Positions 192 to 43,808 of a DNA stretch of 64,000 nucleotides are shown here, piece after piece. Below the pieces are notes generated by a model. The model had not been told where the DNA came from and did no database searches. It saw nothing but the letters and a program-made list of their open reading frames with translations. This stretch comes from Pseudomonadota bacterium (GTDB lineage: Bacteria; Pseudomonadota; Alphaproteobacteria; UBA11222). Position 1 is the first letter of the stretch, and every line of letters begins with the position of its first letter. Position numbers and translations under genes: made by a program. Location: the NCBI GenBank assembly GCA_049325255.1, contig JBMOMW010000026.1, forward strand, positions 7,646 through 71,645, given 5' to 3'.

Positions 192-3100
192 ATGAACCAG
201 GAACTAGTAAATCTCTTCACCCCCGCAGGGCAAAAAGAGAACTTTGATCGTCTGCAAATCGCTCTGGCCAGTCCGGAGCGCATTCTGTCCTGGTCGTTCG
301 GTGAAATTAAAAAGCCGGAAACGATCAACTACCGCACGTTCAAGCCGGAGCGTGATGGTCTTTTCTGCGCCCGCATCTTCGGGCCGATCAAGGACTATGA
401 ATGTCTGTGCGGCAAATACAAGCGGATGAAGTACAAGGGCATTATCTGCGAAAAATGCAATGTTGAAGTAACCTTGTCCAAGGTCCGGCGCGAGCGCATG
501 GGCCATATCGAACTGGCGTCGCCGGTTGCGCATATCTGGTTCCTGAAATCCCTGCCAAGCCGCATCGGCCTGATGCTCGATATGACGCTGAAGGATCTGG
601 AGCGGGTATTGTATTTTGAGCAGTATGTCGTGCTTGAACCGGGCCTGACCCCGCTGAAGCCCAATATGCTTATCAACGAAGAAGAATTCCGCCGCGCGCA
701 AGATGAATATGGTGATGATGCATTTACGGTAGGTATTGGCGCCGAGGCGATCCGTGAATTATTGATGGCAATCGATCTGGTTGCCCTGCGTGACCGTTTG
801 CGCATTGAACTGTCCGAAGCGACAGGCGAAGCCAAGCCGAAAAAGATCGTCAAGCGGTTGAAGCTTGTTGAATCTTTCATCGAATCAAAAAACCGTCCCG
901 AATGGATGATCCTGACCGTTGTGCCGGTTATTCCGCCGGAACTGCGCCCGCTGGTGCCGCTGGATGGCGGCCGTTTTGCGACATCGGATCTGAATGATCT
1001 GTACCGCCGGGTGATCAACCGTAACAACCGCCTGAAGCGGCTGATGGAACTGCGCGCGCCGGATATCATTGTGCGTAACGAAAAACGCATGTTGCAGGAA
1101 TCGGTTGACGCGCTGTTTGATAATGGCCGCCGTGGCCGTGTCATTACCGGCGCGAACAAACGTCCGCTGAAATCGCTTGCCGATATGCTGAAGGGCAAGC
1201 AGGGCCGCTTCCGTCAGAACCTGCTGGGCAAGCGCGTCGATTATTCCGGCCGTTCCGTGATTGTGGTGGGGCCGGAGTTAAAGCTGCATCAGTGCGGGCT
1301 GCCGAAGAAAATGGCGCTTGAACTGTTCAAGCCGTTTATCTATTCGCAGCTAGAAGCGCGCGGGCTTTCCAGCACCGTGAAACAGGCGAAGAAGCTGGTG
1401 GAAAAAGAACGCCCCGAAGTGTGGGACGTGCTTGATCAGGTGATCCGCGAACATCCGGTTATGCTGAACCGTGCGCCGACACTGCATCGTTTGGGCATTC
1501 AGGCGTTTGAGCCGGTGCTGATCGAAGGCAAGGCAATTCAGCTTCATCCGCTGGTGTGCGCCGCATTCAATGCCGACTTTGACGGTGACCAGATGGCCGT
1601 GCATGTGCCGCTGAGCCTTGAGGCGCAGCTTGAAGCGCGCGTCCTGATGATGTCGACGAATAATATTCTGCGCCCGTCAGACGGCAAGCCGATCATCGTG
1701 CCCAGCCAGGATATCGTGCTTGGCCTTTATTACATGACCATCGAACGTCCCGGCGCACAGGGCGAAGGCATGATCTTCTCCAATCTGGGCGAGATCGAAC
1801 ACGCGCTGGCCAGTAAATCAGTAACGCTGCATTCGCCGATCAAGGCGCGTCGCGTCAGTGTTGATGCCGAAGGTAAAGAGTTTGTTGAACGTGTGGACAC
1901 CACACCGGGGCGCATGATGCTTGGGGATCTGTTGCCACGCCATCCGCAGGTGCCGTTTAGTCTTGTAAACCGCCTGTTGACGAAGCGCGACATCAGTACG
2001 GTTATCGATGTGGTCTATCGTCATGCCGGGCAAAAAGAGACGGTGCTGTTTTGCGACCGCATCATGGCGCTTGGATTCCGTCACGCCTTCAAGGCTGGTA
2101 TTTCGTTCGGCAAGGATGACATGGTGGTGCCAAAGGCCAAGACAAAAATGGTCGATGATACCCGTGCGCTGGCCAAGGAATATGAACAGCAGTATACGGA
2201 TGGTCTGATCACCCAGGGTGAAAAATACAACAAGGTCATCGACGCCTGGTCAAAATGCACCGACCGGGTAGCCGATGAAATGATGGCGGAAATTTCGAAT
2301 GCCGGTGTTGATGCGAATGGCAAGGCGAAGCCGTTGAACTCGATCTATATGATGGCGCATTCCGGTGCGCGTGGCTCCGCCGCGCAGATGAAGCAGCTTG
2401 CCGGCATGCGCGGGCTGATGGCGAAACCGTCGGGTGAAATCATCGAAACGCCGATCATCTCGAACTTCAAGGAAGGCCTTACTGTTCTTGAATATTTCAA
2501 CTCAACGCATGGCGCGCGCAAGGGCCTTGCGGATACGGCGCTGAAGACCGCCAACTCCGGTTATCTCACGCGGCGTCTGGTTGACGTGGCGCAGGATTGC
2601 ATCATCAAGGAGCAGGATTGCGGCACAAAGCGCGGCCTGAACGTATCGGCTGTTGTCGAAGGCGGCGAAATATTACAGCGGCTTGGGGATCGTATCCTTG
2701 GCCGTACCATATGTGATGACGTCATTCATCCGGTAAGCGATGCGGTTATGGCCAAGGCTGGGCAGGAGCTTAACGAAGCAACGGTTGAGTTGATCGAGGC
2801 AGCGGATATTCAAACCGTACGTATCCGCTCTGTGCTGACATGCGATTCCAAGGTTGGGGTATGCGCCAGATGTTATGGCCGTGACCTGGCCCGTGGCACA
2901 CCGGTAAATATCGGTGAAGCAGTGGGCGTCATCGCCGCGCAATCGATTGGTGAGCCGGGAACACAGCTGACCATGCGCACCTTCCATATTGGCGGCACGG
3001 CGCAGGTGGCCGAACAGTCCTTCATTGAAGCAACGCATGAAGGCGTGTTGCAGATTGAAAATAAGAATCTGGTGGCTGATCGCAATGGCCGCCAGGTCGT

Positions 3101-4418
3101 GCTCAGCCGCAACTGCATTCTGGCGATTGTCGATGATAACGGCCGTCAGCGCGCCACGCACAAAGTGCCCTATGGCACCCGCCTGCTGGTCAAGGAAGGC
3201 GGCAGGATCACCAAGGGGCTGCGCCTGTGCGAATGGGATCCCTATACGCTGCCGATCATTACGGAAAAATCCGGTACTGTTAAGTTTGTCGATCTTGTCG
3301 ATGGTATTTCTGTGCGCGATATGGTGGACGATGCAACTGGCATCACCAACAAGATCGTTATCGATTGGCGCTCTGCACCCAAGGGCGGCGATCTGAAGCC
3401 GGGTGTGGCGCTGGTCGATAAAAAGGGTATGCCCGTCAAGCTGGGCACTGGCGATCTTGATGTGCGCTATCTGCTGTCGGTGGATGCGATTCTGTCGGTT
3501 GAAGATGGCGACGAGGTTGCGGCGGGCGACGTACTGGCGCGTATTCCACGCGAAAGCGCCAAGACCCGCGACATCACCGGCGGTCTGCCCCGTGTGGCGG
3601 AACTGTTCGAGGCCCGGCGTCCTAAAGATCATGCGGTGCTGGCTGAAATGGACGGCATCGTCAAATTTGGCCGCGACTACAAGAACAAGCGCCGAATCAT
3701 TATTGAGGCGGCGGATGATCCCTCGGTGTTCAGTGAATATCTGATCCCCAAGGGCAAGCATGTGGCCGTGCAGGAGGGTGACTTCATCCGCAAGGGCGAG
3801 TTCCTGCTGGATGGCAACCCGGCCCCGCACGACATTCTGGCGATCCTGGGTGTAGAGGAGCTGGCTAACTATCTGGTGCAGGAAATCCAGGAAGTTTACC
3901 GCCTGCAGGGCGTGCCCATCAACGACAAGCATATAGAGGTGATTGTCCGCCAGATGCTGCAAAAGGCCGAGGTCACCAATCCAGGTGAAACGACCCTGCT
4001 GAAGGGCGAGCAGATCGATCGTCTGGAACTGGACGAAATCAACGAGAAAGTCGTTGCCGAAGGCCGCAAGCCGGCGGAAGCCGTTCCGGTTCTGCTGGGG
4101 ATCACCAAGGCGTCCCTGCAAACCCGCTCGTTCATCTCGGCGGCGTCCTTTCAGGAAACGACTCGCGTGCTTACCGAAGCCGCCGTGGCCGGGAAAGTCG
4201 ATTATCTCTCGGGACTTAAGGAAAACGTCATTGTTGGCCGCCTGATCCCGGCGGGTACCGGCGCCCTGATTAACGAAATGAAGGCCATCGCCATCAAGCG
4301 CGATCAGGAGATCCTGAGCGAGCAGAAAGTGGTCAAGGGGGCCATTACCAGCGCTGGCGACCAGGTCCGGGCCGACGCCGAGGCTGTCTTCGCCAAGGCT
4401 CCAGCAGCGGGTGAATAG
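192..4418 (+). CDS. rpoC: DNA-directed RNA polymerase beta' subunit
   Basis: ORF 141..4418. The conserved N-terminus MNQELVNLF begins at the ATG at 192; the in-frame ATG at 141 is a possible alternative start. Zinc-binding CxxC...CxxC near the N-terminus, catalytic NADFDGDQM motif, length about 1400 aa. Confidence 0.95.
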
Positions 4419-4467
4419 ATAAGCTTAAATAAAAACAGGCAGTGTTGAAGAAAATGCCTGTTATGGG

Positions 4468-4496
4468 TTGACGAAAGATAAAGGCGCGGATAATGT
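4468..4496 (+). promoter_or_regulatory. candidate sigma70-type promoter for the rpsL-rpsG-fusA-tuf (str) operon: TTGACG, 17-bp spacer, TAATGT. The -10 sits in the loop of a perfect inverted repeat GCGCGGA-N5-TCCGCGC (4484-4502).
   Basis: Hexamers read directly from the sequence in the 289-bp rpoC-rpsL gap. Spacing was counted by hand. Confidence 0.35.
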
Positions 4497-4707
4497 CCGC
4501 GCACTTTCAGGCCATGGTCGTAGGGACCGAATCTTCGGAACCTAAACACTGTCCGGAAGCGAAATAGAAGAGTTTTGGCGCATGAGCGGGTGAACAGCCC
4601 GTTCCTCTGCAAGTATCCCAGGATAGGGACGGCAAGTGTCGTCCTCTGTCCTGCTTGTGATTTTTGTTATTGTTTTTGTTGCTCTAGGACATGGGAAAGC
4701 GATCTTA

Positions 4708-5573
<866 letters not shown>

Positions 5574-5601
5574 TCAATTTAAAGTCTGAAGGTTCCCGAT
5601 C

Positions 5602-7677
5602 ATGTCCCGTAAAACCCCACTCGAACATTACCGTAATATCGGCATTATGGCGCATATTGACGCCGGAAAGACGACGACGACGGAACGTATCCTGTATTAT
5701 ACCGGGGTCAGCCACAAGATCGGCGAAGTGCATGAAGGCGCGGCGACGATGGACTGGATGGAGCAGGAACAGGAACGCGGCATCACCATTACTTCGGCGG
5801 CCACAACCTGCTTCTGGCGCGACTATCGCATCAATATTATCGACACCCCCGGCCATGTGGATTTTACCATTGAAGTAGAGCGCAGTCTGCGCGTGCTTGA
5901 TGGCGCGGTGGCGGTGTTTGACTCGGTTGCCGGTGTTGAGCCGCAATCCGAAACCGTCTGGCGTCAGGCCGACAAATATAGTGTTCCGCGCATTTGCTTC
6001 GTGAACAAGATGGATCGTATCGGCGCGGATTTCTATCGCTGCGTCGAAATGATCAAGGACCGTCTGGGCGCCATTCCGGCGGTGCTGCAATTGCCGATCG
6101 GATCGGAATCCGCGTTTGTCGGCGTTGTCGATCTGCTGAATAACCGGGCCATCATCTGGAAAGATGAAAGCCTTGGCGCCGAATTTGAATATGTCGCAAT
6201 TCCCGCCGACATGGCGGACGAAGCTGCCGACTATCGCGCCCAACTGGTTGAGCTGGTGGTTGAACAGGATGAAGCCGCACTCGAAGCCTATCTTGAAGGC
6301 ACGGAACCCAGCGTGGAAGCATTACTGGCCTGTATCCGCAAGGGTACTGTTGGCGGCAAGTTCGTTCCGGTAATTTGTGGCTCCGCGTTCAAGAACAAGG
6401 GCGTGCAGACATTGCTGGATGCGGCCGTTGATTTTCTGCCCTCGCCTCTGGATGTTCCCTTTATCCAGGGTACCGTGCCGGATTCGGACGAAGTCGTAGA
6501 ACGTCGCCCCGATGATGCAGAGCCAGTAGCGGCCCTTGCATTCAAGGTAATGAATGATCCGTTTGTGGGCTCGCTGACATTCGTGCGGCTTTATTCCGGT
6601 ACGCTGGAAGCGGGCATGACGGTGCTGAATTCGCGCCGCGGCCATCGCGAACGGATTGGCCGGATGCTGCAAATGCATGCGGACAAGCGCGAAGAAGTCA
6701 AGACAGCAGTTGCTGGTGATATTGTGGCGCTGGCAGGTCTGAAAAACACTATTACCGGTGATACGCTTTGCGATACGGTCAAGGTGGCCATCCTGGAAAG
6801 CATGGAATTCCCGGACCCGGTTATCGAAGTGGCTGTCGAACCAAAGACAAAAGCCGATCAGGAAAAAATGGGCGTCGCGCTCAATCGGCTGGCCCAGGAA
6901 GACCCTTCCTTCCGCGTCTCCAGCGATCCGGAATCCGGCCAGACCATCATCAAGGGCATGGGCGAACTGCATCTCGATATTATCGTTGATCGCATGCGCC
7001 GCGAGTTCAAGGTTGAAGCGAATGTAGGCGCGCCGCAGGTGGCGTATCGCGAAACAATTAACAAGACTGTCGAGGTCGATTACACCCACAAAAAGCAGAC
7101 CGGTGGTTCGGGTCAGTTTGCCCGCATCAAGATTCGTCTGGAACCGTTGGAGCCAGGTGGCGGCGAGCATTTCGAAAACAAGGTTGTCGGCGGTTCGGTG
7201 CCGCGTGAATATGTGCCCGGCGTCGAGAAGGGTGTTATGAGCGTGAAGGATAGCGGCGTTCTCGCTGGTTTTCCGGTTATCGATTTTCAGGTCACGTTGC
7301 TCGATGGCGCCAGCCATGACGTGGACTCCAGCGTGCTGGCGTTTGAAATTGCGGCGCGCGCTGCGTTCCGTGAAGCAGTGCAAAAGGCCGATCCGAAATT
7401 GCTTGAACCAATCATGCGGGTCGAAGTGGTGACGCCGGAAGATTATATGGGCGACGTGATCGGCGATCTGAACAGCCGCCGTGGCCAGATTGGCGGTACG
7501 GAATCGCGCGGCAATGCCGCCGTCATCAAGGCGATGGTGCCGCTCGCCAACATGTTTGGCTATGTGAACAATTTGCGCTCCATGAGCCAGGGACGCGCGC
7601 AATACACAATGCACTTTGACCACTATGAAGCCGTGCCGCAGCACGTTTCGGCAGAGGTCATTGCAAAACTGGCGTAA
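5602..7677 (+). CDS. fusA: elongation factor G
   Basis: 691-aa ORF. GTPase motifs AHIDAGKTT and DTPGHVDF. Conserved str-operon position. Confidence 0.95.
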
Positions 7678-7748
7678 TAATTTGTCCATTCAACGGACAG
7701 CAGGTTAAGGACTGGAACCTCAGGGTTCCCAAAGCGGAGACAAAGAAC

Positions 7749-8939
7749 ATGTCGAAAGAGAAGTTTGCGCGCACGAAGCCGCATTGCAACATTGGCACGA
7801 TTGGGCATGTTGACCACGGCAAGACGTCATTGACGGCGGCGATTACGAAGGTTCTGGCCGAGACGGGCGGGGCGACGTATACGGCGTATGACCAGATTGA
7901 CAAGGCGCCGGAAGAAAAGGCGCGTGGGATCACGATATCGACGGCGCATGTTGAATATGAAACGGTGAACCGGCATTACGCGCATGTGGATTGCCCTGGC
8001 CATGCGGACTATGTGAAGAACATGATCACGGGTGCTGCGCAGATGGATGGGGGCATTCTGGTTGTGTCGGCGGCCGATGGCCCGATGCCGCAGACGCGCG
8101 AGCATATTCTTCTGGCGCGTCAGGTTGGGGTGCCTTCGCTTGTGGTATTCATGAACAAGGTGGATCAGGTGGACGATCCGGAACTTCTGGAGCTGGTTGA
8201 GCTGGAGATCCGCGAACTTCTGTCGAGCTATGATTATCCTGGCGATGATATTCCGATCATCAAGGGTTCTGCGCTTGCAGCGCTGGAAGGCAAGAATCCG
8301 GAGATTGGGCATGATGCGATTCTGGAGCTGATGAAGGCTGTTGACAGCTATATTCCGCAGCCGGAGCGTCCGAAGGACCGTCCGTTCCTGATGCCGATTG
8401 AAGACGTGTTTTCGATTTCGGGCCGTGGCACGGTTGTGACGGGCCGTGTGGAACAGGGCGTTGTCAAGGTCGGCGAGGAAGTCGAGATTGTAGGCCTGAA
8501 GCCGACGCAGAAGACGGTTTGCACGGGCGTTGAGATGTTCCGCAAGCTTCTGGATCAGGGCGAGGCGGGCGACAATATCGGCGCGCTGCTGCGGGGCATT
8601 GACCGTGAAGGTGTTGAGCGCGGCCAGGTTCTGGCCAAGCCCGGCTCGATTACGCCGCACACGAATTTCAAGGCGGAAGCCTATATTCTGACGAAGGAAG
8701 AAGGTGGCCGTCACACGCCGTTCTTCAACAATTACCGTCCGCAGTTTTATTTCCGCACGACGGACGTGACGGGTGTTGTGACGCTTCCGGAAGGCACCGA
8801 GATGGTGATGCCGGGCGACAATGTTACGATGGATGTTGAACTGATTGTTGCGATCGCCATGGACGAAGGCCTTCGCTTCGCCATCCGCGAAGGCGGCCGC
8901 ACCGTCGGCGCCGGCGTCGTCGCAAAAATCATTAAATAA
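7749..8939 (+). CDS. tuf: elongation factor Tu
   Basis: 396-aa [19 protein letters not shown] and NKVD motifs. Follows fusA. Confidence 0.95.
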
Positions 8940-8953
8940 GGACGGCGTAGCCA

Positions 8954-9262
8954 ATGCAAAACCAGAATATCCGTATCCGGTTGAAGGCTTTCGAGCATCG
9001 CGTGCTCGATCAGTCAACCAAGGATATCGTGAACACCGCCAAGCGCACAGGTGCGACAGTACGTGGTCCGATTCCTCTGCCGACCAGGATTGAGAAATTC
9101 ACGGTGCTGCGTGGGCCGCACGTTGATAAGAAAAGCCGCGAGCAGTTTGAAGTGCGTACGCACAAAAGATTACTCGATATCGTTGATCCGACACCACAAA
9201 CAGTGGACGCGCTCATGAAGCTCGACCTGGCTGCCGGTGTGGATGTGGAAATTAAGCTTTAA
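8954..9262 (+). CDS. rpsJ: 30S ribosomal protein S10
   Basis: 102-aa [18 protein letters not shown].., typical S10. First gene of the S10 operon. Confidence 0.95.
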
Positions 9263-9274
9263 GCAGGTGAAGAA

Positions 9275-9994
9275 ATGCGTTCTGGTGTGATTGCCCAGAA
9301 AATCGGCATGACCCGCGTCTTCAAAGATGATGGGCGGCATGTTCCGGTGACGGTTCTGAAGATGGATAACTGTCAGGTTGTCCGTCAGCGCACTGTTGAC
9401 GGCGACGGTTATACCGCGGTGCAGCTTGGCGCTGTTGCGGCGAAACCGAAGAATGTCACAAAGCCGATGCGGGGACATTTTGCGGCGGCCAATGTAGAGC
9501 CGAAGCGCAAGGTCGTGGAGTTCCGGGTTTCCCCGGAAAATCTGCTTGACGTTGGTGCAGAAATTACGGCCGGGCATTTTGTCATTGGTCAATATGTGGA
9601 TGTGTCCGGCACGAGCATCGGCAAGGGTTTTGCCGGCGTTATGAAACGGCATAATTTTGGCGGTATGCCCGCCAGCCACGGCGTATCGATTACGCACCGC
9701 GCCCATGGTTCGACCGGTCAACGCCAGGATCCAGGCAAGGTGTTCAAGGGCAAGAAGATGGCCGGGCATATGGGCGATGTTCGCGTCACCACCCAGAATC
9801 TGGAAGTGGTGGCGACGGATGTAGCGCGCGGTATTTTGATGATCAAGGGGGCGGTGCCGGGCGCCAAAGGCGGCTTTGTGCTGGTGCGTGATGCGGTTAA
9901 GCGCGCACTGCCCGAGGGTGTGCCGATGCCCGGTGCGGTTCGCGGCGGTAATAGCGCGGCAGCACCTGTAGAACAGAAGGAAGAAAGCGCATGA
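9275..9994 (+). CDS. rplC: 50S ribosomal protein L3
   Basis: 239-aa [20 protein letters not shown]-terminus. Position after rpsJ. Confidence 0.93.
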
Positions 9995-34691: not shown

Positions 34692-36506
34692 ATGCACCAA
34701 TACCGTACCCATACCTGCGGCGAATTACGCCCTGAACATGTCGGTGATACTGTGCGCCTGTCTGGCTGGGTGCACCGCAAGCGCGACCATGGCGGGTTGA
34801 TATTCATCGATTTGCGCGATCATTACGGCCTGACCCAATGCGTGCTGGATCCGTCATCCCCCGTCTTTGCAGCGGTCGAGCAGGTGCGCCCGGAATGGGT
34901 GATTACCCTTACCGGAACCGTGGTCGCCCGTGGCGCCGACACCGTCAACGCCAATCTGCCGACAGGCACGGTTGAACTGGCCATCAGGGATTTTGCCCTG
35001 ATCTCGCAGGCGCAGGAATTGCCTATGCCGGTGTTTGGCGAACAGAATTACCCGGAAGAAATCCGTTTGCGTAACCGCTTCCTGGATTTGCGCCGGGAGA
35101 AACTGCACCGCAATATCATGCTGCGCAGCCGGGTGATCGCAAGTCTGCGCCGCCGCATGGAAGGGCAGGGCTTTACCGAATTCCAGACCCCGATCCTGAC
35201 CGCAAGCAGTCCCGAAGGCGCGCGCGACTTTCTGGTGCCCAGCCGCATGCATCCGGGTAAGTTCTACGCACTTCCCCAGGCGCCGCAGCAATTCAAGCAG
35301 TTGATCATGGTGGCGGGCTTTGACCGCTATTTCCAGATCGCGCCCTGCTTTCGCGATGAAGACGCCCGCGCCGACCGTTCACCGGGCGAGTTCTATCAGC
35401 TTGATATCGAAATGTCGTTTGTCACCCAGGAAGACATCTTCGCCGCCGTCGAGCCGGTCTTGCACGGGGTGTTCGAGGAATTTGCCGATGGCCGCACCGT
35501 GCCGCCACGTCCTTTTCCGCGCATTCCCTATTCCGAAGCCATGCTGAAATATGGCAGCGACAAACCGGATTTGCGCAACCCGATTGAAATTTGCGATTTG
35601 ACGGAATTTTTTGCGCTGGATGCGGTCACGTTTAACGCCTTCAAGAAACCGATTGCTGCGGGCGGCGTGGTGCGTGCGATCCCCGCCCCTGGCGCTGCGG
35701 CGCAACCGCGCAGTTTCTTCGATAGGCTGAACGAATGGGCGCGCACCGATATGGGTGCGCCGGGCCTTGGCTATGTCATTCTGGAAGAAGAGGCGGGCGC
35801 GCTGGTGGGGCGTGGCCCCATCGCCAAGTTTATTCCCGGCGATATTCTGGCGCAGATGGCGGCGCGGGCAAAGGCCAAAGCAGGCGACGCCATCTTCTTC
35901 GCCTGCGACAAGCCCAATCAGGCGGCGGCATTGGCGGGCGCGGCGCGCATGCGCATTGGCGAACAGTTGGAGATTTGTGAAAAGAATGTTTTCCGCTTCT
36001 GCTGGATTGTTGACTTCCCTATGTTCGAACTGGACGAGAAGACCGGCAAAATAGATTTCGCCCATAATCCGTTTTCCATGCCCCAGGGGGGGCTGGAAGC
36101 GCTGGACAGCGTCGATCCGCTCGGCATCAAGGCCTATCAGTATGACATTGTCTGTAATGGCACGGAGCTTTCTTCGGGCGCGGTGCGTAACCACCGCCCC
36201 GACATCATGTACAAGGCGTTCGCCATTGCAGGCTATGACACCGCCACAGTGGATAGCCGGTTTGGCGGCATGATTTCCGCCTTCAAATATGGCGCGCCAC
36301 CGCATGGCGGCATTGCGCCCGGCGTTGACCGCATCGTCATGCTGCTGGCGGACGAGCCGAATATCCGCGAGGTCATTCTGTTCCCGATGAACCAGCAGGC
36401 GCAGGATTTGCTGATGAATGCACCGGCTAGAGTTTCTCCGGAACAGCTGCGCGAATTGCATATTCGCATTGCCCTGCCGCCGTCTGTTGAAAAGAAAAAG
36501 GATTAG
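34692..36506 (+). CDS. aspS: aspartate--tRNA ligase
   Basis: 604-aa [16 protein letters not shown].. with class II aaRS motifs (FRDEDxRADR, GGIAPGVDR). Confidence 0.95.
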
Positions 36507-37750
36507 CCCCGACGGGAGCGCCTGGGGATGAGCCCAGGTAGAGCTGGAGCCGTGTCTGTTTCTGACGGTTGCGCAGTGGCGGTCACCAGATCGCGGGTGG
36601 ACTGGCCAAGCCGGGCGCACAGGATCAGTGACAGGTTAAACAATACGCGCGCCGCGATGGCAGGCATCTTTTCCATGATGCGGCGCACGATCTCCTGGCT
36701 TAGCACCAGCAATTCGGTTTCGTCCGTGGTCACCACATCTGCGGTGCGGGGCGCCTCTGTCAGATAGGCCAGTTCGCCGAATATGTCGCCGCGTTTCAGG
36801 CACGCCACCTCGGCCTTGTCCGGTCCCGCCAGAACCCTGACCTCGCCAGATAAAATGACGAACATTTCCCGCCCCAACTGACCGGCCTTGACGATGGGCA
36901 TGTTTGTTCGGCAATGCAGAACCGATCCGGCGCGAATAAAAGACATCGCCTCGGGGTAGCTTAAGCCCTCCAGCAGCGGGATACCCGCAGTTGGCGATTG
37001 ATTTAGCTTGCGGGCCAGGAAATGCCAGAACTCATCATCAGCCATCGCAGCTTCAACCGGGGCATGTGCGTAATCGGGAAAAGTGCGCGAGAACCAGTTG
37101 CCTGTCTCGGTTGGATTTACCATCCCCCGGGCGATCTGAAGCAGGGGAGAGTTAACCCGCCCAAGATGCTGGAAATCTTCCGTCACCATCACCAGCGGCA
37201 CCTGGTAGCCAAGCACTTCATCCATGAAATTTTCGCGAAACCGGCGATAGCCGAGACGTTGATACAGCGGCAACAGTGCAGGCGCGCATTGGGTGAAATC
37301 AAAACGGCTGCCATTCTGGCGGGCAATTTTATAGACAGCGCTTAACGCCAGTGACGCGGCCCTGCTGTTGGTCCATTTAGGACTAATCACCAATTGGCCG
37401 CTAAGCGAAAGCGCGTCGATACTGAATTCGCGGAACGGACCAAAGCCGTCAAGCTGGGTAATCTCGGAAAGATTGTTGTCGGCCAGCCCGGTATTCAGGC
37501 GCGCGGTTGCGACAATTTCATGGGCGCCAGACTGGGCGACATAGATTTGCTTGCCCGATGCATCCAGCGGATCGCACACCCGTTTGGCGCGATGGTCTGC
37601 ATAAGGGGGTTCGTCGCCAAATTCCTCGACCTTCACCCTGTACCGGAAACGGTAAATCCTCTGGCGCTCCTCCTCGTCGCGCGCGATGAAGGCCTGAAGT
37701 CTTGTATTTTGGGGTGTCCCATCCTGCATCGGTAAAGATTGAATGAACAA
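36503..37750 (-). CDS. fusion protein: N-terminal OlsB/N-acyl-amino-acid-synthase-like GNAT acyltransferase domain plus C-terminal cyclic-nucleotide-binding (CAP effector) domain
   Basis: 415-aa ORF. The N-terminal [21 protein letters not shown] resembles the OlsB-family signature (RYRVFxEEMG). The C-terminal [10 protein letters not shown]...RTADVVT is the canonical cNMP-binding PBC motif. Confidence 0.6.
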
Positions 37751-37783
37751 GATGAATACAGGGTTAAGAACGCATCAAAAAAA

Positions 37784-37812
37784 GGGGGGCCGCGCATTCG
37801 CGGCCCCAGTTT
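37784..37812 (-). terminator. rho-independent terminator downstream of nrdJ (9-bp GC stem GGGGCCGCG/CGCGGCCCC, 4-nt loop, T7 tract on minus strand)
   Basis: Read directly. Plus strand shows AAAAAAAGGGGGGCCGCGCATTCGCGGCCCCAGTTTT. Confidence 0.75.
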
Positions 37813-37899
37813 TCAGCAGGGAAGACTCCGATGACTATTCGGAGGTACGCAACGCAACTAACTGGCGATATTCCCTTAATTCCTTGGAAAACCATTCCT

Positions 37900-40800
37900 T
37901 CACGAGCAGCCGCTGGTGGCGCCGCAGGTGTTGCACTTCATGCAGGTGCCATTACGCACCAGTGTGAAATTGCCGCACTCGCCACAGCTTTCTCCCTCAT
38001 ATCCCTTGACCCGCGCTTCCATCAGCAGGCTGGTTTGCGTCGTGCTGCCCCCGCTGCTTACAGATGTGCTCATGGCATAGCTCTCAGTTGTGACAAAGGG
38101 GCCCGTGCCCGTGCACATTTCGCTTAGCAGGCTGGCCGCGACTTCTTCCTGTTCAACAATTGCGGGCCGCTCGGCGCCGCCGGGCAGTACGACAAGACGG
38201 CTGCGCACAAAGCCGGTGCTGGTAACTTTCTGCACCTGCCCGGTAACCTCTTCGATGCCCGATCCCATCGCATCAAAGCGGTACTCGTTGGGTTCCACAT
38301 GCGCCAGATCGCCGCGACCGAGATAAGAGATCGCCAGTTCCCGGAACACATAATCGACAATCGATGTGGCGCTTTTGATCACGTCATTGCCCTGTACCAT
38401 GCCCGCCGGTTCAAAGCGGGTGAAGGTAAAGGCGTCGACAAATTCTTCCAGTGGCACGCCATATTGCAGGCCAATGGAAATGGCGATGGCGTAATTGTTC
38501 ATCAGGCTTCGAAAGGCGGCGCCTTCCTTGTGCATGTCGATGAAGATTTCACCCAGTTTGCCGTCTTCATATTCGCCCGTGCGCAGATAGACCTTGTGTC
38601 CGCCGACGGTTGCCTTTTGCGTATAGCCCTTGCGGCGATGCGGCAGACGGCGGCGCTCAACGTTTTTCTTTTCCGCCTCTAGGGTGCGAATGGCCAGTTG
38701 CTCTGCAACAAGTTGCGCACGCATGGCGGCGGGCGCTTCAATAACGGTTTGCGCCGTTTCCTGGGCGACAGAGGCGTCATTATCCAGAATTTGGGCGTTG
38801 AGCGGCTGGCTCAGTTTGGAGCCGTCACGATACAGCGCGTTGGCCTTGATCCCCAGGCGCCAGGATTTCATATAGGCGCTGGAACATTCCGCAATCGTTG
38901 CGTCATTGGGCATATTGATGGTCTTGGAGATGGCGCCGGAAATAAACGGCTGGCAGGCCGCCATCATTTCGATATGGCTATCCACACTCAGATAGCGCTT
39001 GCCAATGCGCCCGCATGGATTGGCGCAATCAAACACCGGCAGATGCGCGTCTTTAAGACCCGGCGCGCCTTCCAGTGTCATGGTGCCGCAGCAATACAGG
39101 TTTGCGGCATCCACATCGGCCTGGGTGAAACCAATCGCCGTCAGCATGTTGAAATTCATGTCTTCCAGCTGTTCCTGGCTCAGGCCCAGAACAGCGGTGC
39201 AGAAATCCTCGCCCAGCGACCATTTGTTGAAGACGAACTTGATGTCGAACGCAGACGCCAGTCCGGCCTCGATGGTTTCCAGTTGCGCGTCGCCAAACCC
39301 GCGCGCGCGCAGGCTATCGTGATTGACGCCAGGCGCCCCGTTCAGTGTGCCACGGCCCACGGCATAATCGATAATGGCGTCAATTTCGGCTTGCGCATAG
39401 CCCAGCACCTGCAATGCGGGCGGCACGGTCTGGTTGATGATCTTGAAATATCCGCCGCCCGCCAGTTTCTTGAACTTGACCAGGGCGAAATCCGGCTCGA
39501 TCCCGGTGGTGTCGCAATCCATGACCAGGCCGATGGTGCCGGTTGGCGCAATCACGCTGGCCTGCGCATTGCGATAGCCATGCGCCTTGCCCAATATCAC
39601 GGCGCGGTCCCAGGCAACCCGTGCGGCGGCAATCAGCGCCTTATCGGGGCAACTGGCAGCGTCCAGCGGCACAGGCAGGGTCTGCAAACCTTCATAGCCG
39701 TGGGTTTCACCAAGTGCCGCGCGTTGATGATTGCGCATCACCCGTAGCATCGCATCCGCATTTTTCTCATACCCCGGAAAGGCGCCAAGCTCGCGCGCCA
39801 TCAAGGCCGAGGTTTCATAGGAAACGCCCGTCATCAGCGCGGAAATGCCCCCGGCAACGGCGCGCCCCTCAGCGCTGTCATAGCCAAGCCCCATGCCCAT
39901 CAGCAGCCCGCCCAGATTGGCGAAGCCAAGCCCAAGGGTGCGATATTTATAGGACAGTTCGGCGATTTTCTGCGATGGGAACTGCGCCATCATCACGGAA
40001 ATTTCCAGCACGATGGTCCATAGCGATGCCGCGTGTGAGAAGCCCGCCACATCAAAGGCGCCTGCGCCATCCTGGAAACGCATCAGATTGAGCGAGGCCA
40101 GATTGCAGGCGGTATCGTCCAGGAACATATATTCCGAGCATGGATTGGATGCGCGGATCGGCCCGCTTTTGGGGCAGGTATGCCAGTCATTAATGGTGGT
40201 GTGAAACTGCAACCCCGGATCGGCGGACGCCCACGCGGCCTCGCCTATGCGATCCCACAGCTTGCGCGCGGGCAGGGTTTTGGTCACAACGCCATCGGTG
40301 CGCCGGGTCAGCGACCATTCCCCATCTTCTTCAACTGCTTTCAGAAACGCGTCTGTTACCCGTACGGAATTATTGGAGTTTTGCCCCGATACAGTCAGAT
40401 AGGCTTCGGAATCCCAGTCGGTGTCGAAGGTCGGAAAATCCATCCGCTTATGGCCCTGGCGGGCAAACTGAATCGAGCGCTGAATATAATTTTCCGGCAC
40501 CATCATGGCGCGGGCGTTGCGGATTTCCTGACGCAGGGCAGGGTTCTTTTTCGGATCGAAGCATTCATCGCCATCGCTGCTGCAATTGACGCAGGCGCGG
40601 ATGATGGCGTTCAGATGTTTATCGAGCAGCTTGGAGCCGGAAACCAGCGCCGCGACTTTTTGTTCTTCGAGCATTTTCCAGTCGATAAAGGTCTCAATAT
40701 CCGGGTGATCAACATCGACGATCACCATTTTTGCGGCGCGCCGTGTCGTGCCGCCGGATTTGATAGCGCCCGCAGCACGGTCGCCAATACGCAAAAAGCT

Positions 40801-41565
40801 CATCAGGCCGGATGATTTTCCGCCACCCGAAAGCGATTCGTTCTCGCCGCGCAGGGCAGAGAAGTTGGAACCCGTGCCCGAACCATATTTGAACAGGCGC
40901 GCCTCACGCACCCATAAATCCATAATGCCGCCTTCATTCACCAGATCGTCACTGACGCTCTGAATGAAACAGGCGTGGGGTTGCGGGCGCTCATAGGCGC
41001 TGAGAGAACGCTGCACCTCGCCGGTGGTGTGATCCACATAGAAATGGCCTTGCGCCGGTCCATCAATGCCATAGGCCCAATGCAGGCCGGTGTTGAACCA
41101 TTGCGGGCTATTGGGCGCGCACATCTGGCTGGCCAGCATATAGCGATGCTCATCATAAAAGGCGCGCGCATCGTCCTGTCCATCGAAATAGCCGCCCTTC
41201 CAGCCCCAATAGGTCCACGCGCCCGCCAGACGGTCAAATACCTGTGTCGCCTGCTTTTCGGGACCAAAACGCTTGGTCGGGTCGATCCGCTCCAGTGCGG
41301 CGTCGTCTGCGGTGTGGCGCCATAACCAGGCCGGCACATCGGCCTCCTCGATAGGGCGAAGCTCAACAGGAACCCCGGCTTTACGGAAATATTTTTGCGC
41401 CAGAACGTCACAGGCCACCTGGCTCCAACTGGCTGGGACGCGGATATCTTCCAAACGGAATACAATCGACCCGTCGGGATTACGAATCTCGCTATTCGCT
41501 GTACGGAACGCGATGCTATCGTAGGGTGACTTGCCTTCGACCGTGTAGTGACGCTTAACGCGCAT
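37900..41565 (-). CDS. nrdJ: adenosylcobalamin-dependent ribonucleoside-diphosphate reductase (class II, long NrdJ)
   Basis: 1221-aa ORF. RNR barrel motifs and C-terminal CxxC...CxxC zinc-finger tail (CGECGN...CMKCNTC) typical of alphaproteobacterial NrdJ. Confidence 0.9.
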
Positions 41566-42570: not shown

Positions 42571-43032
42571 ATGGGTGGAAATATTGTTGAAACACTGATC
42601 GGCGCTGCAGTGTTGGCGGTTGCCGGCATCTTTCTGGCCTTTGGCTATTCGACCAGCAGTATCAACAGCGATGGCGGCTTCAAACTTATTGCCAAATTTG
42701 ACCGGGTTGACGGGCTGACGACGGGTAGCGATGTGCGCATGTCGGGTATCAAAATAGGCACCGTGGTCGATCAGCGGCTTGATCCGGCAACCTATCAGGC
42801 CGTGATCGAGATGGATATTGACCGGAAAGTGCAACTGCCCGATGATTCGTCGGTCAAGATCACCAGCGAGGGGTTGCTCGGCGCTACCTATATGTCGCTG
42901 GAAGCGGGCGGCAGCGAAGATTTTCTTGAAAACGGCGGCGAGATTCGCTTTACCCAAGGCTCCATTGATATCATGAGCCTGATTGGCCAGGCCATATTCT
43001 CGGCAACCGGTAAGACCGAAGAGAAAAAATGA
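42571..43032 (+). CDS. MlaD-like MCE-domain protein (outer-membrane lipid asymmetry)
   Basis: 153-aa ORF with N-terminal TM helix and MCE-like domain. Confidence 0.6.
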   Translation: MGGNIVETLIGAAVLAVAGIFLAFGYSTSSINSDGGFKLIAKFDRVDGLTTGSDVRMSGIKIGTVVDQRLDPATYQAVIEMDIDRKVQLPDDSSVKITSEGLLGATYMSLEAGGSEDFLENGGEIRFTQGSIDIMSLIGQAIFSATGKTEEKK

Positions 43033-43808
43033 CTGCATCCGACGCACCGGCTTCCGCCGCCAGCCAGCAATGGCAAGCGGAATCCTATGCGCGCAACGCC
43101 CGGTTTGTGGCCGATCTGGCGCGGCCCGTAGTTGATCTGCTCAACCCCAGGCCCGGAGAGGAGATACTTGATCTCGGCTGCGGGGATGGGGCGCTGAGCC
43201 TCGCCATTGCAGCACGGGGCGCCAGGGTTACGGGCATTGATCCCAGTCCCTCTCTGGTGGCTGCGGCGCATGCGGCCGGGCTTGTTACGGTTAGGGGCGA
43301 TGCGACGGTGATGCCTTTCACCAACTGCTTTGATGCGGTTTTCACCAATGCAGTGTTGCACTGGATATCAAAACCCGATGCGGTGATTGATTCTGTCGCA
43401 AAGGCATTGCGCCCCGGCGGGCGCTTTGTGGGGGAGTTTGGCGGGCATGGCAATGTGGCGGCCATCGTGGTGGCCCTGCGCGCCACGGCCCGCAGACATG
43501 GCCTGGATGAAAGCCAGGTTTCGCCGTGGTTTTACCCGACGCCTGCGGAATATGCGGACAGGCTGACGCACGGTGGATTTCACGTCGACACGATCGAATT
43601 AATACCCCGGCCTACGCCGCTGCCAACCGGCATTGAGGGCTGGCTGGATACGTTCCGGGCGCCATTTTTTCAATCATTACCCAGCGAAAAGCGCGCTTCG
43701 ATTCGTCAGGAAATTATCGGCCTGCTGGCACCGTCCTTGTGTGATTCGCAGGGCAACTGGACGGCGGATTATGTCCGGCTGCGGTTTGCAGCGCATCTGG
43801 CGGCCTAG
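43029..43808 (+). CDS. class I SAM-dependent methyltransferase (Tam-like)
   Basis: 259-aa ORF with SAM motif ILDLGCGDG. Confidence 0.75.
   Translation: MTASDAPASAASQQWQAESYARNARFVADLARPVVDLLNPRPGEEILDLGCGDGALSLAIAARGARVTGIDPSPSLVAAAHAAGLVTVRGDATVMPFTNCFDAVFTNAVLHWISKPDAVIDSVAKALRPGGRFVGEFGGHGNVAAIVVALRATARRHGLDESQVSPWFYPTPAEYADRLTHGGFHVDTIELIPRPTPLPTGIEGWLDTFRAPFFQSLPSEKRASIRQEIIGLLAPSLCDSQGNWTADYVRLRFAAHLAA

Follow-up and report, generated by a model that had tools for sequence, protein, structure and literature searches.

Characterized members of the branch of GCN5-related N-acetyltransferases (GNATs) that comprises FeeM-type N-acyl amino acid synthases (NAS), LuxI and Acetyltransf_5 N-acylate small amines, using acyl carrier protein (ACP) or coenzyme A (CoA) thioesters as donors, and to our knowledge no characterized NAS carries a fused cyclic-nucleotide-binding (CNB) domain. 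The only studied CNB domain that covalently controls a GNAT is that of mycobacterial Pat/KATmt (Rv0998, MSMEG_5458; a "type III GNAT"), in which the binding of cAMP to the N-terminal CNB domain rearranges the protein extensively, clears a pseudo-substrate out of the GNAT site and relieves autoinhibition (PMC8556138). OlsB is the archetype of PF13444; olsB and olsA are usually neighbors, and aminolipid N-acyltransferases branch apart from NAS and acyl-homoserine lactone (AHL) synthases (PMC11631085). Here we analyze a gene encoding a GNAT-CNB fusion in a 64,000-nucleotide stretch of alphaproteobacterial DNA (lineage UBA11222, contig JBMOMW010000026.1; hereafter the window). We propose with moderate confidence that its product is a soluble N-acyltransferase under cyclic-nucleotide control, with a small amine or amino acid as its acceptor, a proposal supported by the directly observed domain identities, intact phosphate-binding cassette, purifying selection, family-wide architecture and gene associations.

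Each of these systems resembles the fusion in part. FeeM-type NAS (PF21926; 2G0B) and Acetyltransf_5 enzymes lie in the same GNAT sub-branch, as judged by hidden Markov model (HMM) matches of 21 of 28 relatives and by fold, and have a comparable catalytic unit of ~200 residues, with FeeM-type NAS and the family having in common an R-x-R-Y-x-V-x-V-E-E-x-G .. D .. R-L block. Unlike FeeM-type NAS, the fusion has a helical extension of its own (D192, S201-P202, W219-F220), a CNB domain and no adjoining fee-type ACP or acyl-activating genes. It keeps the Arg/Asp/Arg cluster in the N-terminal half of LuxI-family AHL synthases (TofI 3P2F/3P2H, BjaI, RpaI, MesI, LasI), but differs from them in missing the strand-4 Glu of W-E-L-S-R, in leaving the LuxI model PF00765 essentially unmatched, in having no LuxR partner and in carrying an extra regulatory domain. 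The first conserved motif and a PF13444-type domain, which scores as borderline in the window copy, are common to OlsB/GluB/GlsB and the fusion, whereas the fusion falls more than 300 bits short of their equivalog models and has no OlsA partner. Pat structures (4AVA/4AVB) occur among the structural and PDB matches, while the NCBIfam Pat model NF058543 (ActPatMycb56) scores 25.4 bits against a threshold of 460, over the CNB region only. Pat has the order CNB-GNAT, an Acetyltransf_1/protein-lysine GNAT with a catalytic Glu, and a protein substrate; the fusion has the order GNAT-CNB and probably a small-amine substrate. Given this opposite order, different GNAT type and different substrate class, the fusion may by analogy work like Pat but is not a member of the Pat family.

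Gene model and domain layout

The open reading frame (ORF) list places the fusion gene on the minus strand at 36503..37750, as 415 aa from a TTG codon. In an alignment of 30 full-length relatives, the closest ones start at the ATG at 37729 (residue 8 of the TTG form; MQDGTPQN...). The TTG at 37750 is probably a start seven codons too far upstream, and the likely product is therefore 408 aa long (36503-37729). Public collections hold an identical 408-aa sequence, and MFZ5930516.1 (NCBI; 142-kb contig of a metagenome-assembled genome, MAG), a 415-aa protein in the same 90% cluster, has the length of the TTG-start form. Alignment residues (D63, R84, D192 and so on) and the PF00027 range are given below in TTG numbering, from which 7 is subtracted to reach the ATG numbering of the feature list. 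Selection is expressed as the ratio of nonsynonymous to synonymous substitution rates (dN/dS), and model confidence as the predicted local distance difference test (pLDDT) and predicted template modeling (pTM) scores. A whole-protein AlphaFold2 (AF2)-type model shows two domains packed with confidence (pLDDT 87, pTM 0.81). The parts of the gene are as follows.

36503..37729, minus strand: coding sequence of the GNAT-CNB fusion, 408 aa from ATG 37729, stop codon at 36503-36505, dN/dS about 0.1
37181..37729, minus strand: GNAT catalytic core, residues 1-183 in ATG numbering, from PF13444/PF21926 matches, TofI alignment, AF2 strands and helices, and Foldseek
36986..37180, minus strand: conserved helical extension of the catalytic module, residues 184-248 in ATG numbering, from invariant columns and dN/dS
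36566..36985, minus strand: CNB domain, beta-roll and long conserved C-terminal helix, residues 249-388 in ATG numbering
36734..36781, minus strand: phosphate-binding cassette (Gly, Glu, Arg, Thr, Ala complete; the Arg is R328 in ATG numbering), from sequence reading and alignment with the PfPKG cassette
36506..36565, minus strand: variable C-terminal tail, modeled with low confidence (pLDDT 51-63; dN/dS 0.3-0.7 in most comparisons)

An N-terminal module resembling NAS and AHL synthases

Profile searches with the window protein gave borderline scores: PF13444 Acetyltransf_5 reached 22.1 bits with the full-length protein and 23.2 bits with the isolated domain (cut-off 22.4), and FeeM PF21926 gave 18.1-20.1 bits, under its cut-off of 27. 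Twenty-one of the 28 aligned relatives match both FeeM (best E 4.9e-15) and Acetyltransf_5 (best E 6.4e-11), and some relatives additionally match Acetyltransf_1, _7 and _10. Several of the relatives tested lie above the FeeM cut-off (for example P0142 at 49.2 bits and P0184 at 45.5 bits). The weak HMM scores are a trait of the clade to which the window protein belongs (the window clade) and not of the whole family.

A PDB profile search with the full-length alignment was dominated by CNB matches, and the N-terminal part was re-aligned and searched separately. The best solved relative of this N-terminal profile was the AHL synthase TofI (E 6.5e-5); the YRFRYRV.VEE.G stretch of the window protein aligned with TofI SYRYRVFVEQLGW, and the alignment extended through the invariant Asp63 and Arg84. 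The GNAT core bears the R-x-R-Y..D..R-L block common to LuxI/NAS/Acetyltransf_5 enzymes. FeeM itself was not among the PDB matches when one strong FeeM-type relative served as the sole query. An AF2 model of residues 8-232 (pLDDT 90.4) had as its nearest Foldseek matches TofI, FeeM, BjaI, RpaI, MesI and LasI (E 2e-8 to 1e-6), with TofI at E 2e-8 and FeeM 2G0B at E 1.5e-7 and TM 0.59-0.72, and we accordingly describe the fold as FeeM/AHL-synthase-like; ordinary protein or small-molecule GNATs followed close behind, at E about 1e-6. Sequence profiles and the predicted fold make it defensible to regard the N-terminal module as a divergent member of the FeeM/NAS, LuxI, Acetyltransf_5 branch of GNATs.

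Between the GNAT core and the CNB domain, residues about 191-255 are helical and form an extension, not a linker. Its columns include invariant D192, S201 and P202 and near-invariant W219, F220 and W242, and it is retained in P0142, a complete stand-alone relative of 218 aa that has no CNB domain (profile positions 12-219). Given this pattern of conservation, we treat the helical stretch as a putative family-specific extension of the catalytic module.

A canonical cyclic-nucleotide-binding cassette

The C-terminal domain was recognized far more firmly, with PF00027 matching residues 281-361 at 63.9 bits (cut-off 27.5), and the family profile matching structures of PKG, PKA, Epac, cyclic-nucleotide-gated channels and CRP with PDB profile E-values down to 1e-54. 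The Gly, Glu, Arg, Thr/Ser and Ala of canonical CNB cassettes contact the ribose and phosphate of the nucleotide. In the window protein the cassette aligns column for column with the cassettes of the PfPKG cyclic nucleoside monophosphate (cNMP) sites, FGERALLYDEPR[ST]A, and among close and mid-range relatives the cassette G, E and A are invariant and the R nearly so. The R-T-A of the window protein also occurs in cGMP-selective PKG sites, yet is not diagnostic for cGMP versus cAMP. Constraint on the C-helix is strong: L377 never varies, and a further five positions are conserved at 90% or more.

Taken together, HMM matches, predicted fold and family architecture confirm the central claim of an earlier sequence-only reading of the window, which had described an OlsB-like acyltransferase fused to a CAP-type cNMP-binding module. 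The phosphate-binding cassette, whose absence would have spoken against that reading, is intact, and the RYRVFxEEMG-type signature that it quoted is the motif that aligns to TofI. The acyltransferase or GNAT HMM match that it expected is clear for the relatives and borderline for the window copy (22.1/23.2 against 22.4 for PF13444). The label "OlsB-like", however, claimed too much: with the OlsB equivalog models the protein reaches 20 and 12 bits, where 350 and 320 are required, and no olsA/PlsC partner gene adjoins it.

The fusion is widespread and under purifying selection

A scan with the single window protein yielded close relatives only. A word-indexed search found ~100 full-length clusters with the same architecture, and an exhaustive search of representatives clustered at 50% identity with the N-terminal-module profile returned 851 of them at E<=1e-30, rising to 2223 at E<=1e-10. 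The best 150 representatives comprised 112 of fusion length (331-470 aa), 31 shorter and 7 longer, and the CNB domain was present in every one of the 119 long members among them. Hosts span the Alpha-, Beta- and Gammaproteobacteria, Negativicutes, Desulfobacterota and Omnitrophota, and include Novispirillum itersonii, Desertibaculum subflavum, Minwuia, a Rhodovibrionaceae isolate, Telluria, Panacagrimonas, Sporomusa aerivorans, a Magnetomoraceae bacterium and an Omnitrophota MAG. Within the window clade, where dS reaches 1-2, dN/dS was 0.06-0.19 for the GNAT core, lowest at 0.00-0.12 for the extension and 0.05-0.08 for the CNB domain, while the disordered tail gave 0.3-0.7 in most comparisons. 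The fusion is real, old and maintained, and all three structured parts are under purifying selection.

Database names for these proteins are generic ("cyclic nucleotide-binding domain-containing protein"), and our literature search found no description of this GNAT-CNB architecture. Both domains, and in principle a CNB-regulated GNAT, are already known; what is new is an NAS/LuxI-branch GNAT with a C-terminal CNB domain and with links to methyltransferases and cyclases. Two database entries stood out in the course of this survey. A 398-aa partial protein of the same 90% cluster, P0252, is deposited under the eukaryotic alga Phaeothamnion confervicola, and its source is most likely an alphaproteobacterium associated with, or contaminating, that assembly. 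The orthologue in a Baikal-deep MAG (L008, 8001-8768) has an ORF of 768 nt even though tblastn matches residues 1-402; it is frameshifted, through either an assembly error or pseudogenization.

Cyclases and methyltransferases accompany family members

Gene neighborhoods of relatives point to both a ligand and a type of pathway. In L026, a gene for a 1389-aa Guanylate_cyc+AAA_16 protein ends 7 nt before the family member, and the family member in L013 has a CHASE2-Guanylate_cyc gene some 5 kb upstream of it; these nearby class III cyclase genes support a cyclase-made nucleotide as the ligand. With the L013 cyclase as query, tblastn across the examined loci found nothing outside L013. The L026 locus (1923-9739) has the appearance of a three-gene signaling operon, in which the cyclase gene is followed by a GNAT-CNB-methyltransferase gene (697 aa) and a CNB-Methyltransf_20 gene (516 aa), the latter overlapping the end of the family member by 4 nt.

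S-adenosylmethionine (SAM) methyltransferases recur beside or within family members. Orthologous methyltransferases, 44% identical to each other, lie directly downstream in L013 and L015; the same enzyme is fused at the C-terminus of P0123, where it is 47% identical to the L013 copy; and P0130, P0166 and P0214 end in a methyltransferase domain assigned to the Pfam families of the L013/L015 partner. Such neighbors and fusions suggest a small-molecule pathway with a product that is often methylated. In P0192 (948 aa), a C-terminal B12-binding radical SAM domain replaces the class I methyltransferase. At L027 (1247-3214), the genes after that for a stand-alone 218-aa member without a CNB domain encode a Haem_oxygenas_2 protein and a PEMT/ICMT-type membrane methyltransferase, and the three may form a small lipid-modifying cluster. 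A methyltransferase gene in the window itself (43029-43808) was considered as a partner and rejected, since it is only generically similar, 27% identical over the SAM motif alone, whereas true partners are 44-47% identical to one another.

Proposed mechanism

In the mechanism that we propose, the ~240 N-terminal residues, GNAT core and helical extension together, would constitute the catalytic module, which most likely acylates a small amine or amino acid on its amino group, drawing the fatty acyl chain from acyl-ACP or acyl-CoA. The CNB domain is predicted to bind cAMP or cGMP through its canonical cassette, and binding would reposition the hinge and C-helix. Hinge, C-helix and the helical extension packed with them may then gate the acyl-acceptor cleft, along an allosteric path that could run toward either activation or inhibition. 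The output would be a second-messenger-dependent burst of N-acyl amide, which in many relatives a dedicated SAM methyltransferase may methylate further.

Several observations weigh against this proposal. The window copy sits at the weak-scoring end of the family, below the cut-off for FeeM and at the borderline for PF13444. In the beta4-alpha3 segment it reads W-T-N-S-R-A where many relatives have W-R-G-S/T, and the window clade has S-G-Q at the S-R position of the LuxI W-E-L-S-R motif, where many relatives have T-S-R; the Glu of that motif is missing family-wide and falls in an insert of the TofI alignment. The window clade is the most divergent part of the family, and its W-T-N-S and S-G-Q deviations slightly lower our confidence in catalytic competence. 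The genes adjoining the window gene, nrdJ and aspS, include no ACP, acyl-activating, lipid or methyltransferase gene, and tblastn of the 64-kb window with the L013 cyclase as the only query found no class III cyclase. The literature searched holds no biochemical data for any family member. Across the family, the cassette Glu and Arg are both kept in 81 of the 119 long representatives and the full motif (G-E-x-A ... R-[ST]-A) in 67; cassette-degenerate members read, for example, SKCLAT, SPEQVT or HPKGAK where others have RTADVV. With about a third of representatives lacking the cassette Glu and/or Arg, cNMP sensing is not family-wide, and part of the family, judging from these residues, probably senses something besides cAMP or cGMP, or nothing. 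The window protein belongs to the canonical-cassette group.

Alternative explanations

Given that the sole characterized CNB+GNAT fusions are protein lysine acetyltransferases, and that one of them, Rv0998, is among the structural matches, the fusion might instead be a cNMP-regulated protein acyltransferase (lysine or N-terminal), an equivalent of Pat/KATmt that modifies metabolic enzymes in response to cAMP. The generic GNATs near the top of the Foldseek results, the Acetyltransf_1, _7 and _10 matches of some relatives and a housekeeping neighborhood without a small-molecule pathway clue would all fit. We nevertheless regard this as unlikely: the Pat model reaches 25 of the required 460 bits and only over the CNB domain, the two domains come in the opposite order, sequence and fold match best to enzymes of the FeeM, Acetyltransf_5 and LuxI types, which acylate small amines, and the recurrent fusions to small-molecule-type methyltransferases together with the radical SAM domain suit a metabolite pathway better. 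A somewhat less probable alternative, and one for which we see little room, is that the GNAT-like module of the window clade is inactive and serves as an acyl-CoA/acyl-ACP or amino-acid sensor or scaffold that integrates a metabolite with the cNMP signal. The same W-T-N-S and S-G-Q deviations, the sub-threshold HMM scores and the absence of adjoining partner genes are compatible with such a role, but the invariant D63, R84, G167, P185, D192 and S201-P202 are all retained, the dN/dS of the GNAT core is in the range expected of a functional domain (constraint would be expected of a binding domain as well), and no output domain is present for such a sensor to control.

Two further alternatives retain small-molecule N-acylation and change the product. 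The borderline match to PF13444, the domain of OlsB, and weak N-terminal matches to OlsB NCBIfam models would be expected of an OlsB-type lyso-aminolipid synthase making an N-acyl ornithine, glutamine or glycine precursor of a membrane aminolipid under cNMP control. Those matches amount to 20.1 bits against 350 for NF052554 and 12 against 320 for NF052555, no OlsA/PlsC-type gene flanks the window gene or its relatives at the loci examined (only a PlsY-type gene, in L010), and the nearest structures lie in the NAS/AHL group, a branch apart from aminolipid N-acyltransferases, which together make this identity quite improbable. Still harder to sustain is a LuxI-like synthase that would combine SAM with acyl-ACP or acyl-CoA into a cNMP-gated autoinducer of the acyl-homoserine lactone type. 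AHL synthases are the top PDB sequence match and the top Foldseek matches, and the R..D..R block is conserved; however, PF00765 Autoind_synth matches one of 28 members, weakly (E 0.0047), the W-E-L-S-R Glu is absent, and no luxR-type gene adjoins the family member in any locus examined. We disfavor most strongly, as barely credible, an anti-phage effector akin to Pycsar or CBASS whose CNB domain senses a defense cyclic nucleotide: the PADLOC matches are confined to residues 261-380, within the CNB domain, the gene is part of a housekeeping block (accC..nrdJ-X-aspS-rnd) conserved by vertical descent in lineages whose proteins are only 35-40% identical, and neither a pyrimidine cyclase nor a defense island adjoins it. 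A cyclic-nucleotide-regulated small-amine N-acyltransferase thus remains our preferred reading.

Genomic context and an ultraconserved upstream element

The fusion gene is flanked by two housekeeping genes, and the spacer on its upstream side contains two conserved features.

37730..37767, minus strand: conserved 38-nt block abutting the ATG, from the alignment of relatives
37776..37864, minus strand: ultraconserved small RNA (sRNA)-like element, outside the protein, from identity in >14 loci
37900..41565, minus strand: nrdJ, upstream gene in the same orientation, encoding a class II (B12-dependent) ribonucleotide reductase (Pfam Ribonuc_red_2_N, Ribonuc_red_lgC, TSCPD)
34692..36506, plus strand: aspS, aspartyl-tRNA synthetase, downstream and convergent (Pfam tRNA-synt_2, tRNA_anti-codon, GAD)

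Beyond aspS lie rnd, a gene of the SDR family and a NUDIX gene. The order nrdJ-X-aspS-rnd is kept in L011 and L017, with proteins only 35-40% identical, and a wider block of accC, aat, DUF2155, MlaD and NDUFA12 is kept in L009 and L017; gene order conserved across such distant lineages therefore looks like inheritance and not functional coupling. The stop codons of the fusion gene (minus strand) and aspS (plus strand) overlap by 4 nt (36503-36506), where relatives have 29-170 nt between the two genes, and the last codons of the fusion gene contain a small hairpin followed by a T-run (36519-36506, minus strand). In the metagenome contig L021 (2125-13666), aspS lies ~8.5 kb from the fusion gene, implying an insertion between them.

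The sequence-only reading had placed the fusion gene immediately behind an nrdJ terminator, with almost no room for a promoter of its own. The terminator-like hairpin is real (37807-37786, minus strand), is followed by a T-run and leaves 46 nt between T-run and ATG, but it belongs to an sRNA-like element of ~89 nt that tracks nrdJ, and the 38 nt before the ATG are themselves conserved. The element consists of a 5' stretch, a hairpin CUCCGA/UCGGAG, a single-stranded UCUUCCCUGCUG and the intrinsic terminator at 37807-37786 with its U-run. Over 65 nt (37864-37800; CAGTTAGTTGCGTTGCGTACCTCCGAATAGTCATCGGAGTCTTCCCTGCTGAAAACTGGGGCCG) it is 100% identical in >14 loci, excepting one A/C position in an AAAAC run and one base in L007, against a dS of about 1-2 for the genes on either side in those genomes. 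The terminator keeps its stem, with a compensatory C-G to U-A change in L005, while the loop varies in length. A shorter homologue occupies the same place in L017 (6859-6925; CAGTAG..GUCCUCCCUGUUGGUGACUGGGGC plus terminator). In L002 and L009 (about 7700-7840), a G-rich palindromic insertion of ~150 nt (GGGGAGGG/CCCTCCCC), similar to repetitive extragenic palindromic (REP) sequences, lies between the nrdJ stop codon and the element; by parting the two, it marks the element as a separate unit.

All seven exact metagenome matches of the element stand in the order nrdJ-element-fusion gene, and the element is absent from L011 and from upstream of family members that are not beside nrdJ. In this lineage the element therefore goes with the 3' flank of nrdJ and does not serve GNAT-CNB genes as a leader. 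The near-total identity in spite of a dS of ~1-2 in neighboring genes suggests that an sRNA-like unit lies at this 3' flank. We rejected a leader or riboswitch as a family feature on the grounds of this distribution and because no antiterminator pairing was evident from the sequence. At Rfam gathering thresholds, the spacer between nrdJ and the fusion gene matched no family, including no B12 riboswitch. In layout the element is like the alphaproteobacterial sRNAs with a CCUCCC motif (mmgR/SuhB alpha-r8, SorY, SorX), which have a hairpin, a single-stranded C/U-rich segment (here UCUUCCCUGCUG, and CCUCCCUGUUGG in L017) and a terminator within ~80-90 nt; it differs from those families in scoring 12-16 bits against gathering thresholds of 41-111, the mmgR/SuhB model RF00519 giving 15.7 bits for the window and 14.7 bits for L017 against 41.

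The conserved 38-nt block upstream of the ATG reads TTAACCCnGTATTCATCTTGTTCAyyCA... (TTAACCCnGTATTCATCTTGTTCA...), and in L017 the terminator is followed by a comparable sequence, TTAACC..GTTGTTCA. The block has no evident Shine-Dalgarno sequence, no sigma-70 consensus was found in it, and it stands as a candidate promoter, operator or 5' untranslated region. Transcription of the fusion gene may possibly rely on a non-canonical or short-leader promoter, or on read-through of the terminator.

Implications for cyclic-nucleotide and lipid signaling

Beyond the single enzyme, the family as a whole could be a signaling relay in which an intracellular cyclic nucleotide directly gates the maker of a diffusible or membrane-active N-acyl amino acid, with methyltransferase-linked clades yielding methyl esters and the window clade a free N-acyl amide, although we hold this wider picture to be doubtful. 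The synthase genes for N-acyl alanine methyl esters (NAMEs) were reported to be still unknown in 2024 (PMC11580390). Neither protein search found a homologue in the Roseobacter group, and a link to the NAMEs of Roseovarius is therefore speculative.

The protein joins two themes that have not been linked experimentally, bacterial cAMP/cGMP signaling and the synthesis of N-acyl amide or AHL-type lipid signals, and it represents a large family, with hundreds of 50%-identity clusters in several phyla, that features in no study we found. Cultured hosts are available in Novispirillum itersonii, Desertibaculum subflavum and Sporomusa aerivorans. Should the fusion prove to be an active enzyme gated by cNMP, CNB-controlled GNATs would comprise a second kind besides mycobacterial Pat, and this kind would be the first with a small-molecule lipid as its target; the methyltransferase-linked members would then also be candidate genes for orphan N-acyl amino acid derivatives. 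If the wider relay is real, second-messenger state would be converted into an extracellular lipid signal without transcription.

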